The translations under genes were made by a program, and so were the position numbers. Below, piece after piece: positions 3,038-24,688 of a DNA stretch of 64,000 bases; positions within the stretch are counted from its first letter, which is position 1; the number at the start of each line of letters is the position of its first letter. Origin of the DNA: Escherichia coli O157:H7. Its GTDB lineage: Bacteria > Pseudomonadota > Gammaproteobacteria > Enterobacterales > Enterobacteriaceae. The notes under the pieces are model-generated. The model did not search any database. It was given only the letters and a program-made list of their open reading frames with translations, and was not told where the DNA came from. Location: NCBI RefSeq assembly GCF_013167455.1, contig NZ_CP038328.1. One strand, 5' to 3'.

Positions 3038-4258
3038 GTGGTTGCTGAAAACCAGCCTGGGCACATTGATCAAATAAAGCAGACCAACGCGGGCGCGGTT
3101 TATCGCCTGATTGATCAGCTTGGTCCAGTCTCGCGTATCGATCTTTCCCGTCTGGCGCAGCTGGCTCCTGCCAGTATCACTAAAATTGTCCGTGAGATGC
3201 TCGAAGCACACCTGGTGCAAGAGCTGGAAATCAAAGAAGCGGGGAACCGTGGCCGTCCGGCGGTGGGGCTGGTGGTTGAAACTGAAGCCTGGCACTATCT
3301 TTCTCTGCGCATTAGTCGCGGGGAGATTTTCCTTGCTCTGCGCGATCTGAGCAGCAAACTGGTGGTGGAAGAGTCGCAGGAACTGGCGTTAAAAGATGAC
3401 TCGCCATTGCTGGATCGTATCATTTCCCATATCGATCAGTTTTTTATCCGCCACCAGAAAAAACTTGAGCGTCTAACTTCGATTGCCATAACCCTGCCGG
3501 GAATTATTGATACGGAAAATGGCATTGTACATCGCATGCCGTTCTACGAGGATGTAAAAGAGATGCCGCTCGGCGAGGCTCTGGAGCAGCATACCGGCGT
3601 TCCGGTTTATATTCAGCATGATATCAGCGCATGGACGATGGCAGAGGCCTTGTTTGGTGCCTCACGCGGGGCGCGCGATGTGATTCAGGTGGTTATCGAT
3701 CACAACGTGGGGGCGGGCGTCATTACCGATGGTCATCTGCTACACGCAGGCAGCAGTAGCCTCGTGGAAATAGGTCACACACAGGTAGACCCATATGGTA
3801 AACGCTGTTATTGCGGGAACCACGGCTGCCTCGAAACCATCGCCAGTGTGGACAGTATTCTTGAGCTGGCACAGCTGCGTCTCAATCAATCCATGAGCTC
3901 GATGTTACATGGGCAACCGTTAACCGTGGACTCATTGTGTCAGGCGGCATTGCGCGGCGATCTGCTGGCAAAAGACATCATTACCGGGGTGGGCGCGCAT
4001 GTAGGACGCATTCTTGCCATCATGGTGAATTTATTTAACCCACAAAAAATACTGATTGGCTCACCGTTAAGTAAAGCGGCAGATATCCTCTTCCCGGTCA
4101 TCTCAGATAGCATCCGTCAGCAGGCCCTTCCTGCGTATAGTCAGCACATTAGCGTTGAGAGTACTCAGTTTTCTAACCAGGGCACGATGGCAGGGGCTGC
4201 GCTGGTAAAAGACGCGATGTATAACGGTTCTTTGTTGATTCGTCTGTTGCAGGGTTAA
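3038..4258 (+). CDS. mlc: Mlc (DgsA), ROK/NagC-family global repressor of PTS genes
   Basis: 406-aa ORF beginning MVAENQPGHIDQIKQTNAGAVYRLIDQ..., matching recalled Mlc; C-terminal zinc motif CYCGNHGCLE. Confidence 0.9.
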   Translation: MVAENQPGHIDQIKQTNAGAVYRLIDQLGPVSRIDLSRLAQLAPASITKIVREMLEAHLVQELEIKEAGNRGRPAVGLVVETEAWHYLSLRISRGEIFLALRDLSSKLVVEESQELALKDDSPLLDRIISHIDQFFIRHQKKLERLTSIAITLPGIIDTENGIVHRMPFYEDVKEMPLGEALEQHTGVPVYIQHDISAWTMAEALFGASRGARDVIQVVIDHNVGAGVITDGHLLHAGSSSLVEIGHTQVDPYGKRCYCGNHGCLETIASVDSILELAQLRLNQSMSSMLHGQPLTVDSLCQAALRGDLLAKDIITGVGAHVGRILAIMVNLFNPQKILIGSPLSKAADILFPVISDSIRQQALPAYSQHISVESTQFSNQGTMAGAALVKDAMYNGSLLIRLLQG

Positions 4259-21365: not shown

Positions 21366-21722
21366 TTACTCGAGAGGAAATTGGTTATGAATACAATCAA
21401 GTTTTCTTGCCCAGAATGTGGTGGCGAAGTCTTTGACACATCCTTTAAGCCGCAGGGCTCTGACAGTTTCGCGGGAGCCATCTGCAAAAATTGTGGTCAC
21501 CTTGTAACTGAAGATGAGTCCTCGCAGTTCGATGACGAAATCGTTGACAATATCTTCGGTGCACTCACCAGAGACTTTCTGAAGTAAAGGCGCATACCGC
21601 TTAGTTACCGCTCTGATAACTCTTACCTGTCCTGCAATGGCGCTGATGTCAATATAAAGCGCCATTGCTGCTTCTTTGCCGATCCCGGGATGCCTTCCAT
21701 TCTGATGTTTGACTTCGCCCAC
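21366..21722 (-). CDS. Hypothetical protein, first gene of the leftward early operon (conflicts with a convergent ORF at 21387..21587)
   Basis: GTG start with GAGGG RBS just downstream of the operator-like region at 21903-21958; same orientation as dicB. Confidence 0.3.
   Translation of the reverse strand: MGEVKHQNGRHPGIGKEAAMALYIDISAIAGQVRVIRAVTKRYAPLLQKVSGECTEDIVNDFVIELRGLIFSYKVTTIFADGSRETVRALRLKGCVKDFATTFWARKLDCIHNQFPLE
21387..21587 (+). CDS. Alternative overlapping ORF: 66-aa zinc-ribbon-like protein (CPECGG...CKNCGH)
   Basis: ATG at 21387 with AGAGGAAA RBS 6 nt upstream; two CxxC pairs; antisense to the early operon, so only one of the two overlapping ORFs is likely real. Confidence 0.3.
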   Translation: MNTIKFSCPECGGEVFDTSFKPQGSDSFAGAICKNCGHLVTEDESSQFDDEIVDNIFGALTRDFLK

Positions 21723-21902
21723 TGAGAAACCCTCTGTTTCCCCTTAACGCCGGGGTAGCGGAACAAAAAACTGCTGCATAGTTATTAAAGTTGAACCCTG
21801 CCGTCATGTTCATACGCCTCGGGCTGGCTACTTAACCCCTGACCACTGCCGGGTAACTCGAAGTATTTCCCTGCGTTCTGTGGGGCGGGGTGGGTTGGTA
21901 TT

Positions 21903-21958
21903 TTTAGTTTAATAAACATTAAACTTAAGTCAAGTAAAAACTAAACCGCGGGACATAA
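21903..21958. promoter_or_regulatory. Operator-like cluster (TTTAGT / ACTAAAC half-sites) for the leftward dicB-type early promoter
   Basis: Shares half-site motifs with the repressor-cro intergenic region; lies in a 295-bp ORF-free gap. Confidence 0.4.
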
Positions 21959-22017
21959 CAAACACAACGCTTTTGATAAAGTCGTTGCGGTTGTTATGTT
22001 TCTATTGGTAGTGAAAG

Positions 22018-22296
22018 TTAGGGAAACTGGCGTCTTGCGTGGATCACGTTTACTACTTCAACGCTTGATGTTGTTACGCGGTATAGAATTATATAGTTAG
22101 GGTGGGCTACAATCTCACGCAAGCCAGGTACTCTGTCGCTTGGTGGGTATAAATACGGATGTTCGGATAACGGCAGCACACAACCCCTTAATCGCTGCCA
22201 TAAGCGTTCAGCCGCATCTATGTCGAAACGAGCAATATAACTAGTTATATCATCTAGGTCGGTATCTGCGCTTTCAAGCCATAACACGGGTAACAT
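22018..22296 (-). CDS. ParE/RelE-superfamily type II toxin
   Basis: About 93 aa from MLPVLWLESADTD... to ...EIVAHPNYIILYRVTTSSVEVVNVIHARRQFP, a typical ParE/RelE C-terminus; start overlaps the stop of the upstream small ORF. Confidence 0.6.
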   Translation of the reverse strand: MLPVLWLESADTDLDDITSYIARFDIDAAERLWQRLRGCVLPLSEHPYLYPPSDRVPGLREIVAHPNYIILYRVTTSSVEVVNVIHARRQFP

Positions 22297-22297
22297 T

Positions 22298-22489
22298 TTA
22301 CTGCTTGCTCCGTTCCTTGCGCATCTTAGCAAAGCGTTCTGCCATTCTGCGCTCAACTTCGTCATGGGGAATTGCTGGGCGCGGATCTGCAAGGCTCGTT
22401 GCTACTTTCGCACGCAGCCATTCGTTGTAACTGTTTTCTTGTTCAATGGTTTCAAATTCAGAAACCATTGGTGAAAGGGCTCTATTCAT
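22298..22489 (-). CDS. Putative antitoxin (ParD-like) paired with the ParE-like toxin
   Basis: Small acidic/basic protein MNRALSPMVSEFETIEQENSYNEWLRAKVATSLADPRPAIPHDEVERRMAERFAKMRKE; stop is 1-2 nt from the toxin start. Confidence 0.5.
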   Translation of the reverse strand: MNRALSPMVSEFETIEQENSYNEWLRAKVATSLADPRPAIPHDEVERRMAERFAKMRKERSKQ

Positions 22490-22509
22490 GTTTCCTCCGG
22501 TTTTATAAC

Positions 22510-22881
22510 TCAGGCGCGGCGGCATTTTTGCGCCGCAATCCATCTCGCTATGAGATCTTCCATTGATTCTTTTTTCTGCTTTAACTCGCTGATTATCTGG
22601 CGTTGCTCATCCTCAGGGAAGGCTGAAAAAATCTGCAATAATTCCAGTTGATTAGACGTTAACCCTGCATGTGGTGGAGAACCCCCCGGTTGTTCTGCGT
22701 ATTCCGCATCCAGATACCCTTCCGGCATCCCGTATGTTTGCTCTATTCTTCTGGCAGCCTTTTCTCCAAACGAGGCTCTCCCACTCATTAGTTGAGATAG
22801 GTAGCTCTTCTCTTTGGGTGGCAGAGTTTTATCTTTAAACCACTCCTTGAGACGTAAACGGCGAATTTCTTTTTTTTGCAT
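22510..22881 (-). CDS. dicA: DicA-like (P22 C2 / lambda cI analog) prophage repressor with XRE-type HTH
   Basis: Architecture parallels recalled DicA (C-terminal ...LTSNQLELLQIFSAFPEDEQRQII... vs DicA LSPKELELLELFNALPESEQ); divergent from the cro-like gene. Confidence 0.65.
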   Translation of the reverse strand: MQKKEIRRLRLKEWFKDKTLPPKEKSYLSQLMSGRASFGEKAARRIEQTYGMPEGYLDAEYAEQPGGSPPHAGLTSNQLELLQIFSAFPEDEQRQIISELKQKKESMEDLIARWIAAQKCRRA

Positions 22882-22893
22882 GTGGTAATTATC

Positions 22894-22968
22894 TTTAGTA
22901 ATCACTAAACAAGCAAATACTTGACTTAATGGTTTATTAAACACTAAACTCGCAAAAAAACACTAAAC
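22894..22968. promoter_or_regulatory. Repressor/cro intergenic operator-promoter region with three CACTAAAC-containing sites
   Basis: CACTAAAC at 22903-22910, 22942-22949 and 22961-22968; palindromic TTTAGT-N4-ACTAAA at 22894-22909; TTGACT -35-like hexamer at 22921-22926. Confidence 0.5.
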
Positions 22969-22978
22969 CGAGGAAGGT

Positions 22979-23281
22979 ATGACATTAAAAGAGTTTATTA
23001 AATCATTAAGGGTTGGTGATGCTAAGAAATTCGCGGCCAGACTTGGTGTATCGCCATCTTACTTATCGCAAATGGCGTCTGGACGAACAGCTATATCTCC
23101 AACCCGCGCCCTTATGATCGAATCTGCGACGGAAGGCCAAGTAAGTAGGGCGGAGCTACGACCCCATGATTGGGAGCTTATTTGGCCTGAGTATGCGAGC
23201 GGCATTCGTTTGGGGCAAACACATGTAGTTCATGCTGAAGGTGATTGTAGTGCATGCTTATCTGATGGAGTTGATTCATGA
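22979..23281 (+). CDS. Cro-like (DicC/YdaS-like) HTH regulator
   Basis: N-terminal HTH (ARLGVSPSYLSQMASGRTAISPTRALMIESAT); first rightward gene across from the repressor. Confidence 0.6.
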   Translation: MTLKEFIKSLRVGDAKKFAARLGVSPSYLSQMASGRTAISPTRALMIESATEGQVSRAELRPHDWELIWPEYASGIRLGQTHVVHAEGDCSACLSDGVDS

Positions 23282-23703
23282 AAATCAAGCATGAACACAT
23301 CCGCATGGCGATGAATGTCTGGGCGCATCCGGACGGCGAAAAAGTACCGGCTGCGAAAATTACCAAAGCGTATTTCGAGCTGGGAATGACGTTCCCGGAA
23401 CTGTATGACGACAGCCATCCGGAAGCCCTGGCCCGTAATACCCAGAAAATTTTCCGTTGGCTGGATAAAGACACCCCTGATGCTGTTGAAAAAATGCAGG
23501 CTCTGTTACCGGCGATCGAAAAGGCGATGCCGCCTTTGCTGGTGGCCCGTATGCGCAGCCACAGTTCTGAATATTACCGTGAGATCGTCGAACGGAGGGA
23601 TCGGCTGGTGAAGGATGTCGATGATTTTGTTGCGTCAGCGGTTGTTTTGTATGACCAGATGAATCGCGGCGGCCCGGCAGGGAATGCTGTGGTGATGCAC
23701 TAA
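23278..23703 (+). CDS. YdaT-like / CII-like phage regulatory protein
   Basis: 141-aa protein following cro with ATGA overlap; position and size match Rac YdaT; family assignment from memory. Confidence 0.45.
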   Translation: MKIKHEHIRMAMNVWAHPDGEKVPAAKITKAYFELGMTFPELYDDSHPEALARNTQKIFRWLDKDTPDAVEKMQALLPAIEKAMPPLLVARMRSHSSEYYREIVERRDRLVKDVDDFVASAVVLYDQMNRGGPAGNAVVMH

Positions 23704-23710
23704 AAGCACG

Positions 23711-24688
23711 GTGTTCGGGGGTTTTATGAGCAGCAAGCTTCATGGTCTTGTCTGGGAAGGGTGCGCCTTCACCGGCATGATCTTATCCAGGGTGGCGGTT
23801 ATGGCCCGTCTTGCAGACTACAGCAATGACGAGGGCGTGTCATGGCCTGCCATTGAAACTATCCGGCGTCAGATCGGTGCAAGAAGTGAATCCACAGTGA
23901 AATCGGCTATTGCAGAACTGGCGAAAGAGGGCTGGCTGACGAAGGAAGAGCGTAAGGTCGGTGGGCGTAATGTAAGCAATATCTATCGGCTTAATGTGGA
24001 AAAACTCGAAGCAGCTGCTGCGGCGGCGCGTGAGTCATATAAACCGAAAAGAAAAATTAGCCCGGCAAAAAATGACCCGTTAACAGTTGCCCCGTCAAAT
24101 ATTGCCCCCTCAACGGTTGACCCGTCAAATTTTGATGGATCAACTGTTGATAACAAACTGCCGATTAGGGGGGCGATGATTGACCCCGATCCGTCAGTAT
24201 TAAAACCTGATCCGTCAGATAAAAGATCTTCTTGTCCGGACGCTTCGCAACCGGACCCGCAGACGGCTGAACAGAATTTTTTAACCCGACACCCTGACGC
24301 GGTTGTGTTCAGTGCGAAAAAACGCCAGTGGGGAAGTCAGGAAGATTTGGTGTGCGCACAGTGGATCTGGGGACGAATCGTGAGTCTTTACGAGCAGGCG
24401 GCCAGCGATGATGGCGAGATCACGAGACCGAAAGAACCCAACTGGACTGCATGGGCCAATGACGTGCGGACAATGCGGATGCTGGATGGCAGAACTCACA
24501 GACAAATTTGTGAAATGTTTGGGCGTCTCCAGCGGGATTCGTTCTGGGTAAAAAACATCATGAGTCCGGCAAAACTCCGGGAAAAATGGGATGAACTGGT
24601 TATCCGCCTGGGGCGTTCGCCCGCGCAGCGTTGCGTGAATCACATTTCTGAACCGGACACTGAAATACCGCCGGGATTCAGGGGGTGA
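23711..24688 (+). CDS. Phage replication initiator (YdaU / O-like) with N-terminal winged-helix domain
   Basis: N-terminal ...MARLADYSNDEGVSWPAIETIRRQIGARSESTVKSAIAELAKEGWL... then P/S/D-rich linker; sits before the DnaC-like loader. Confidence 0.55.
   Translation: MFGGFMSSKLHGLVWEGCAFTGMILSRVAVMARLADYSNDEGVSWPAIETIRRQIGARSESTVKSAIAELAKEGWLTKEERKVGGRNVSNIYRLNVEKLEAAAAAARESYKPKRKISPAKNDPLTVAPSNIAPSTVDPSNFDGSTVDNKLPIRGAMIDPDPSVLKPDPSDKRSSCPDASQPDPQTAEQNFLTRHPDAVVFSAKKRQWGSQEDLVCAQWIWGRIVSLYEQAASDDGEITRPKEPNWTAWANDVRTMRMLDGRTHRQICEMFGRLQRDSFWVKNIMSPAKLREKWDELVIRLGRSPAQRCVNHISEPDTEIPPGFRG

Follow-up and report, generated by a model that had tools for sequence, protein, structure and literature searches.

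The window analysed here is a stretch of 64,000 nucleotides (nt) of Escherichia coli O157:H7 (RefSeq assembly GCF_013167455.1, contig NZ_CP038328.1), and the subject of this work is a pair of open reading frames (ORFs), named the plus and the minus ORF after their strands, which occupy the same DNA at positions 21366-21722. The region was 100% identical to E. coli O157:H7 chromosomes. Its counterpart in strain Sakai is the early-left region of the lambda-like prophage Sp12, in which the plus ORF is ECs_2282. The features of the pair are listed below.

21366-21722, minus strand: minus ORF of 118 amino acids (aa) from GTG, which fully contains the plus ORF
21366-21665, minus strand: conserved core of the minus gene, 99 aa from ATG 21665
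21666-21722, minus strand: possible N-terminal extension of the minus gene, 19 codons from GTG 21722
21588-21665, minus strand: the 26 N-terminal minus codons outside the overlap
21671-21676, minus strand: Shine-Dalgarno-like AAGAAG, 5 nt before ATG 21665
21381-21587, plus strand: longest form of the plus ORF, 68 aa from TTG
21387-21587, plus strand: plus gene, 66 aa from ATG (MNTIKFSCPEC...CKNCGH...)
21372-21378, plus strand: Shine-Dalgarno site GAGAGGA of the plus gene, 8 nt before ATG 21387

The overlap measured 201 nt, with the plus ORF wholly embedded in the minus ORF and residues 27-93 of the 99-aa minus protein encoded antisense to the plus gene. The codons of both frames coincide, plus position 1 facing minus position 3 and position 2 facing position 2. 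This coincident-codon antisense frame is the classic 'shadow ORF' frame and is naturally stop-poor. When the sequence was randomly recoded with synonymous codons at the codon usage of the window, the antisense frame was open with a probability (P) of ~0.24 for the minus frame given the plus gene and of ~0.27 for the plus frame given the minus gene. The overlap in this single sequence is therefore not beyond chance, and the significance of the ORF pair arises only through comparison with relatives. An earlier note, made from the letters of the window, had described two fully overlapping ORFs on opposite strands, each with a plausible ribosome-binding site, and had offered two options, that one ORF is spurious or that they form a sense/antisense pair. 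The ORF calls (21366-21722 on the minus strand enclosing 21387-21587 on the plus strand) and the sites GAGAGGA, 8 nt before the plus ATG, and AGAGGG, 8 nt before the minus GTG, agreed with that description, and the comparative evidence given below supports the second option.

Relatives were searched among 5.8 billion proteins with the protein of each ORF as query. With both queries the families found were small; their members, from Citrobacter, Klebsiella and Enterobacter, reached down to 60-70% identity and were on the same contigs. When 1.84 billion representatives were scanned in full by HMMER with the minus profile, only seven proteins were returned, two of them much more divergent. Five more clusters came from a profile search with the plus family, one being the already known L099 lineage and one coming from Serratia. 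The scan of GTDB representative genomes with the minus profile gave no confirmed locus; the family is rare and absent from species representatives. Homologues for one protein only had been named beforehand as the outcome that would speak against a pair; homologues of both were found, reaching ~40-60% identity and always at the same loci.

The homologue loci and 80 viral contigs were then compared as DNA. Both ORFs were intact in at least 12 diverged lineages from E. coli, Citrobacter, Klebsiella, Enterobacter, Serratia and metagenomes (L011 and L013, which are E. coli variants, L002/3, L004-7, L008/9, L010, L093, L095-97, L098, L099-101, L104 and L105), and the overlap aligned without gaps across diverged lineages (the Serratia plus ORF having 62 aa). 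The minus ORF was intact in all loci retrieved by the plus protein alone (L002-L010, L104, L105), while the plus ORF and its four Cys were intact in all loci retrieved by the minus protein alone (L011-L014, L098-L101, L093, L095-L097). Since loci found via one protein are unselected for the other open frame, ascertainment does not explain the co-occurrence. Neither partner was present without the other in the databases searched.

The plus protein is acidic, with a predicted C4 zinc ribbon (C8, C11, C33, C36) and a C-terminal helix. It matched the NCBIfam model NF047912, 'ECs_2282 family putative zinc-binding protein', with 57.3 bits against a cut-off of 37 (expect value (E) 1e-15) over profile positions 1-56 of 60, and its ORF is identical to Sakai ECs_2282. 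C8, C11, C33, C36, G37 and H38 were invariant in 13 sequences, the two CxxC pairs predicting the zinc ribbon. The length was 66 aa in all lineages compared as DNA except Serratia (62 aa); among the protein clusters there were further ones of 67 and 98 aa. In other lineages the plus Shine-Dalgarno site reads AAGGAGG or GAAGGA and in several of them lies outside the minus ORF. The ribosome-binding site and the CxxC...CxxC motif on which the earlier note had remarked were thus kept, the Shine-Dalgarno site and the four Cys being present in all lineages.

Searches of Pfam and PHROGs gave generic zinc-ribbon similarities only for the plus protein. The match to phrog_6422 (E 0.0098) is a generic zinc-ribbon resemblance, and in that to phrog_4852 (E 1e-9), a longer, function-unassigned family, only the N-terminal part of the family is matched. 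PADLOC returned two weak matches (best E 0.0019). A restriction-alleviation protein of the Lar/Ral type was rejected (TIGR03655, 15.7 bits against a cut-off of 39.6, E 0.014), as was a SieB homologue, there being no PF14163 match and a soluble-looking zinc ribbon.

For the minus gene, the 118-aa ORF of the earlier note is present, but ATG 21665 and not GTG 21722 is its conserved start. The divergent homologues start at the position aligned with ATG 21665, and in place of AAGAAG they have AGGAG, GGAGG or GAGGTG before the start codon. The 19 codons between GTG 21722 and ATG 21665 were highly variable, held a 1-bp deletion at 21714 in eight loci in which the core ORF was intact, and were missing from the Citrobacter, Klebsiella and Enterobacter homologues; GTG 21722 is hence unlikely to be the true start, and the 99-aa form was taken as the conserved minus protein. 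Gene callers extend the minus ORF upstream to 174 aa at L004/L005 (3995-4519, minus strand) and to 126 aa at L009 (4094-4474, minus strand). As these extensions differ between lineages, the common start remains the ATG equivalent to 21665.

The minus core is the RefSeq WP_001240336-type protein, and residues 20-118 of the ORF matched profile positions 1-99 of 99 in phrog_21318 (E 3.9e-67). No match to the minus protein was found in Pfam or NCBIfam, none by PADLOC, and the sequence searches of the PDB gave none for either protein; in Pfam, NCBIfam, PHROGs, PADLOC and the PDB sequence searches neither protein had a recognisable relative of known function or fold. AlphaFold2, with only 17 sequences as input, gave a minus model with a mean predicted local distance difference test score (pLDDT) of 84, and of 86-91 across the overlapped part. 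The predicted fold is a compact alpha/beta one with a short strand, three helices, a beta-hairpin and a long C-terminal helix. An antiterminator of the lambda N type was rejected, with no match to an N family in Pfam, NCBIfam or PHROGs and a protein predicted to be well folded and not largely disordered; SieB was rejected for lack of a PF14163 match.

In the 26 minus codons outside the overlap, the ratio of nonsynonymous to synonymous substitution rates (dN/dS) was 0.32 when read in the minus frame (bootstrap 0.12-0.58, P(>=1)=0.0003); the three other frames tested on the same stretch gave 0.67-1.37. Length changes were in-frame only, of 3 nt in L099 at the overlap junction and of 12 nt in Serratia. 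The minus gene is very probably protein-coding.

Substitutions in the shared DNA were analysed in 10 representative diverged sequences on a tree built by the unweighted pair group method with arithmetic mean (UPGMA). In the overlap, plus position 3 had 60 changes, position 1 had 43 and position 2 had 19, and E. coli polymorphism was distributed over plus positions 3:1:2 as 20:8:3. Because the changes pile up at plus third positions, which are minus first positions, coding by the minus frame alone is disfavoured. The pooled dN/dS in the overlap was 0.24 in the plus and 0.55 in the minus frame, the latter being ~1 or more between close E. coli variants.

Changes were also classed, as OLGenie does, according to whether they alter each of the two proteins, and mean pairwise distances were obtained for each class. 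Changes nonsynonymous in both frames (NN) had a distance of 0.18, those nonsynonymous in the plus and synonymous in the minus frame (NS) of 0.45, and those synonymous in the plus and nonsynonymous in the minus frame (SN) of 0.87; changes synonymous in both (SS) were saturated, at few sites. The ratio dNN/dSN was 0.21 (confidence interval 0.12-0.33) and dNN/dNS was 0.40 (0.27-0.56), both bootstrap intervals lying below 1. The 198 shared bases are under purifying selection in both reading frames. At single codons, the rare plus codons ATA (Ile21), GTA (Val40) and CCA (Pro9) were fixed exactly opposite minus Tyr, Tyr and Trp, the third positions of TGT-GGT-CAC (Cys-Gly-His) were invariant opposite minus Val-Thr-Thr, and swaps between CCG and CCT and between TCG and TCT always preserved a minus Arg. 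Plus Cys, Phe and Asp codons varied synonymously, and minus residues there flipped between Ala and Thr, Lys and Glu, or Val and Ile.

Since changes at position 2 are harsher than those at position 1, NN, NS and SN ratios can be biased, and simulations were therefore run along the tree with site-specific rates and BLOSUM-dependent acceptance, a second set adding the codon bias of the window. A first null model, in which replacements were limited to the amino acids seen per column, could not reach the observed protein divergence and was replaced. With selection on both frames, the simulated pNN, pNS, pSN and pSS were 0.18, 0.35, 0.52 and 0.8, against 0.16, 0.34, 0.51 and 0.81 observed. Both single-gene readings failed by a wide margin, with P values that are approximate. 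Taken with the co-occurrence of the two frames, it is very probable from the comparison of sequences that both ORFs are real protein-coding genes and form a conserved antisense overlapping pair.

Several observations weigh against this conclusion. The plus protein gave only a moderate AlphaFold2 model (pLDDT 65). Plus-synonymous dS in the overlap was 0.76 against 1.17 at adjacent minus-only synonymous sites, a difference that points towards selection on both frames but is not significant (P ~0.11). The both-frame model under-predicted conservation, the observed plus identity and both BLOSUM scores exceeding the model (P 0.000-0.012), so that the fit is partial. The P values of the simulations are rough because of the small sample (10 sequences), the UPGMA tree and the simple mutation-selection model. 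Natural plus nonsense alleles, described below, show that some prophages, which may be decaying, can do without the plus gene. Finally, the literature search found no transcription start site (TSS), ribosome profiling (Ribo-seq) or proteomic record for either ORF.

Among the other explanations, the one that survives best, improbable as we consider it, is that only the plus zinc-ribbon gene is real, as the current NCBI Prokaryotic Genome Annotation Pipeline (PGAP) has it for this allele, and that the minus ORF is a shadow ORF in a stop-poor frame. The frame relation is the classic one for a shadow, the antisense frame stays open after a single recoding with P ~0.1-0.4, the minus frame has a high apparent dN/dS within the overlap (0.55 when pooled, and ~1 or above among closely related E. 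coli variants), and it is the plus protein that matches a curated NCBIfam model. Under simulated plus-only selection, however, the minus frame was open in 2.5-4 of 10 tips and all ten were open in 0-0.3% of runs (P<=0.003), whereas it is open in every intact lineage. Minus replacements were more conservative than this null, with a BLOSUM score of 194 observed against 118-154 simulated, a value reached in 0 of 500-1000 runs (P=0), and the observed pNN/pNS of 0.47 compared with 0.73-0.79, again in no run (P=0). The dN/dS of 0.32 in the 26 minus codons outside the plus gene, the conserved minus ATG and Shine-Dalgarno sequence, the confident AlphaFold2 minus model and the constant orientation of the minus ORF with the surrounding operon also argue for a minus gene.

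The converse, that only the minus gene is real and the plus ORF with its CxxC...CxxC motif fortuitous, corresponds to the PGAP annotation of a second O157 copy and to most phage records, and we regard it as very improbable. It agrees with the operon position and orientation of the minus ORF, with its annotation in phage records and phrog_21318, with the better AlphaFold2 model of the minus protein, and with the natural nonsense alleles (E14*, E44*), which hit the plus ORF only. The clustering of substitutions at plus third positions is the opposite of what it predicts, and the plus dN/dS of 0.24, the invariant four Cys, G37 and H38, and the plus length kept at 66 aa throughout except for the 62 aa of Serratia speak for a plus gene. 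Under minus-only selection, the four Cys were never kept in all tips (P=0), pNN/pSN was ~0.7 against 0.31 observed, a value as low being found in no run (P=0), and all plus frames were open in 0-6% of runs (P 0.00-0.06). The plus ATG, the Shine-Dalgarno site and the upstream element with its motif were likewise conserved outside the minus ORF; in several lineages these signals are located past the stop codon of the minus ORF, so that their conservation cannot be due to the minus protein.

Equally improbable in our view is one protein gene combined with a constraint at the level of RNA or DNA, such as would come from a regulatory antisense RNA, a structured mRNA or a binding site for a protein. 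Some blocks within the overlap are near-invariant in DNA, for example TGTGGTCAC.TTGTAACTGAAGA, and conserved hairpins flank it. Antisense RNAs are common in lambdoid immunity regions, as with oop, sar and sas of P22. Such a constraint would leave unexplained the avoidance of stops in both frames, the codon-periodic pattern and conservative replacements of each frame, the indels that are in-frame only (3 nt in L099, 12 nt in Serratia), and the start codons with Shine-Dalgarno sites for both ORFs. A non-coding shadow ORF, for which frequent interruption is expected, was rejected, neither frame being interrupted in at least 12 diverged lineages and each having its own start signals.

Natural knock-outs were counted in 107 loci, a few of which were assigned by eye. 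Both ORFs were intact in ~85 of them. Nonsense changes in the plus ORF only, with the minus ORF open, were present in 18 loci (17 E14* and one E44*), indels disrupting both frames in ~4, and a stop in the minus ORF only in none of the 107. E14* is the change 21426 G>T, found on at least two haplotype backgrounds, in 16 of 98 loci and additionally in the EDL933 copy; on the minus strand this substitution replaces residue F99, which is otherwise invariant. Frameshifts disrupting both ORFs were seen in L102, a copy from a metagenome, and in a small number of E. coli alleles.

In O157 genomes the cassette occurs a second time, within a different prophage (L106 = EDL933 1848502-1848801; L016); this copy is 97.9% identical and has the plus ORF stopped at codon 14. 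The NCBI pipeline annotates the plus ORF in the present allele (Sakai/TR01) and the minus ORF (99 aa, WP_001240336.1) in the second copy (EDL933 and other genomes), and phage records mostly annotate the minus ORF. Because the pipeline annotates opposite strands in the two O157 copies, one real gene is probably missing from every record. In the literature ECs2282, NP_310309 and the WP accessions were unmentioned except in one bulk supplementary table, and a supplement of TSSs from Cappable-seq, searched by EDL933 coordinates, had no entry.

Upstream of the plus ORF, a non-coding element of ~45 nt (in 21321-21386) was near-invariant, while the coding sequence of the same lineages was 40-50% diverged. 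A putative promoter of the plus gene and two conserved hairpins are listed below.

21326-21353, plus strand: putative plus promoter, with -35 TTAACC at 21326-21331, a 16-nt spacer and extended -10 TGgTATCCT at 21345-21353
21329-21333 and 21344-21348: hairpin 1, ACCAC paired with GTGGT, between the minus stop and the plus start (RNAfold, 9 lineages)
21351-21358 and 21369-21377: hairpin 2, CCTCTGAG paired with CTCGAGAGG, the 3' arm including the plus Shine-Dalgarno site (RNAfold, 9 lineages)

The TGnTAT..T motif was kept in almost all lineages, with TTAACC or TTCACC 16 nt upstream. The consensus promoter scan did not list this putative promoter, which has 8/12 matches plus the TG. The pairing of hairpin 2 was kept with different sequences, CCTCTGAG/CTC-AGAGG in some and CTTGGTGT/ACA-CCAAG in others. 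The inverted repeat ACCAC-N10-GTGGT of hairpin 1 overlaps the spacer of the putative promoter; since the immunity repressors differ among these prophages, it is unlikely to be a repressor operator.

The pair lies in a lambdoid early-left arm with the following neighbours.

22510-22944, minus strand: CI-like repressor gene, upstream in the leftward gene order
22018-22543, minus strand: RelB and ParE pair (Pfam ParE, E 5e-16)
21906-21933, minus strand: pL-like promoter TTGACT-16-TAAACT, sigma-70-like, by consensus match only, upstream of the minus gene
20682-20733, minus strand: DicF small RNA (Rfam RF00039, 76.7 bits)

The order on the minus strand is repressor, RelB/ParE, pL-like promoter, minus ORF, ydfC, DicF, dicB, ydfD and an exonuclease gene, and DicF is likewise placed between ydfC and dicB in the Qin prophage of K-12. 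The minus gene had been proposed as the first gene of the leftward operon. This position holds, with the pL-like promoter (21933-21906) upstream of it, and in every context examined the minus gene is oriented with the early operon and the plus gene against it. Three kinds of cassette site were found: in the left arm directly after the repressor; in the left arm after accessory genes (ParE toxin pair, restriction-like gene, lipoprotein); and directly after cro/YdaS at the head of the rightward operon (L002/L003). The pair very probably travels as one small cassette in lambdoid prophages of Enterobacterales.

From this anatomy a mode of expression can be proposed. The minus gene, whose 99-aa product has a predicted alpha/beta fold, would be an early-operon gene read from the early promoter, here leftward; in the two relatives with the cassette after cro it would be read in the rightward operon. 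The plus gene is preceded by a Shine-Dalgarno site and probably by an extended -10 promoter, both its own, and would thus be transcribed against the early operon. The plus protein may be a product of the lysogen, in which the early promoters are repressed, in the manner of prophage genes of the sieB type. Early transcription after induction would then yield the minus protein and would silence the plus gene through transcriptional interference and duplex RNA. The convergent and fully complementary layout may in this way lead to mutually exclusive expression, a toggle between lysogeny and induction, which we put forward as a tentative possibility. Still more speculative is the idea of an old, self-contained and mobile 'two-proteins-from-one-duplex' cassette, whose products might act in opposite states of the prophage with coupled functions and whose overlap would itself be the switch. 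One product could, for instance, be a factor for exclusion or host modification, and the other its counterpart or antagonist in the lytic phase.

By analogy, the closest functional counterpart is the antisense pair olg1 and gene 10 at the lysis-lysogeny switch of the Pseudomonas aeruginosa phage Fc02 (Ramirez-Sanchez et al. 2023, PMC9936078), in which both genes were expressed from constructs and both excluded superinfecting phages (PMC9936078). The two systems are alike in that small products of a temperate phage are encoded by a lysogen-strand gene overlapping an early-lytic-operon gene beside a switch of the repressor/cro type. Fc02 is Mu/B3-like and the present prophage lambdoid, and there is no sequence relationship between the pairs. 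The evidence for Fc02 is experimental, whereas here it is evolutionary, consisting of selection on both frames across genera. No homology implies an exclusion function for the present pair, the PADLOC matches being weak for the plus protein and absent for the minus protein.

The sieB genes of lambda, P22 and Rac are expressed in the lysogen and oriented against the pL operon, and sieB of P22 is under antisense control. The plus gene is similar in lying in the early-left region and opposing early transcription, and it has a SieB-family neighbour in the Enterobacter locus L008. It differs in that SieB is a membrane protein and the plus protein looks like a soluble zinc ribbon, and we know of no sieB that shares its DNA with a protein-coding gene on the opposite strand. 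In comparison with shadow ORFs, the frame relation is the same and the single-sequence probability is ~0.2-0.3, but shadow ORFs are without selection of their own, whereas each frame here has its own constraint, start signals and persistence.

Known cases of overlapping genes in O157 are mostly young and taxonomically restricted ORFs in older 'mother' genes, with support from Ribo-seq or a phenotype. Like them, the present pair involves an embedded antisense protein-coding ORF in the same organism; unlike them, both partners are co-conserved over genus- and family-level divergence. Those described by the Scherer/Neuhaus group in E. coli O157:H7 include nog1/citC, laoB, ano, asa, pop/ompA and others (bioRxiv 2020.11.18.388249; PMC9927249; PMC5960689; PMC6294744). 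The EDL933 plus ORF is entered in Table S12 of Zehentner et al. (bioRxiv 2020.11.18.388249) among the embedded antisense ORFs, and its RefSeq hits there are to ECs_2282; apart from this bulk table, no paper that discusses or singles out the ORF pair was found in the literature search.

The pair very probably belongs to a known but rare and contested kind, the antisense overlapping genes. Long antisense protein-coding overlaps in bacteria and phages are disputed, and annotation pipelines drop them by rule. The comparative signal for dual-frame selection is unusually clean here, with a gapless alignment, at least 12 lineages and independent ascertainment of each protein. The pair also heads early operons in prophages of pathogenic E. 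coli and is a small, easily mutated system, in which stops in one frame that are silent in the other can be made. It can be used for the study of the co-evolution of two proteins on one duplex and of convergent overlap as an expression switch between lysogeny and lysis.

Some further observations concern the surroundings of the cassette. Directly upstream of the plus gene and on the same strand, L008 has a Pfam SieB-family gene (3323-3823, plus strand), and L099 (4516-5022, minus strand) and L005 (3077-3520, plus strand) have other co-oriented genes; the 147-aa and 168-aa co-oriented upstream proteins in relatives had no Pfam match. The RelB/ParE-type toxin-antitoxin pair stands between the CI-like repressor gene and the leftward early promoter, a spot held in lambda by rexAB, and related prophages have there a restriction-like gene (HSDR_N), a YedD-like lipoprotein, or nothing. 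On the plus strand, PGAP annotates a hypothetical protein of 54 aa (20908-21072, WP_001331716.1, ECs_5735) that adjoins the end of ydfC and opposes the operon; it had no Pfam match. The Rfam scan of 19500-24000 gave only DicF and a sub-threshold STnc100 match, with none at the ORF-pair locus; the STnc100 match, at 20475-20684 on the minus strand, scored 39.7 bits against a gathering score of 47 and overlaps dicB. A long inverted repeat, AACATAACAACCGCAACG ... CGTTGTGTTTGTTATGT at 21953-22000, lies just 3' of parE and 5' of the pL-like promoter and is a possible terminator or operator. In the 5' leader of the minus gene there is, at 21740-21760 (minus strand), a small GC hairpin, CGCTACCCCGGCGTTAAGGGG, preceded by a boxA-like CGCTAC, and this hairpin was kept among the E. 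coli-type variants.

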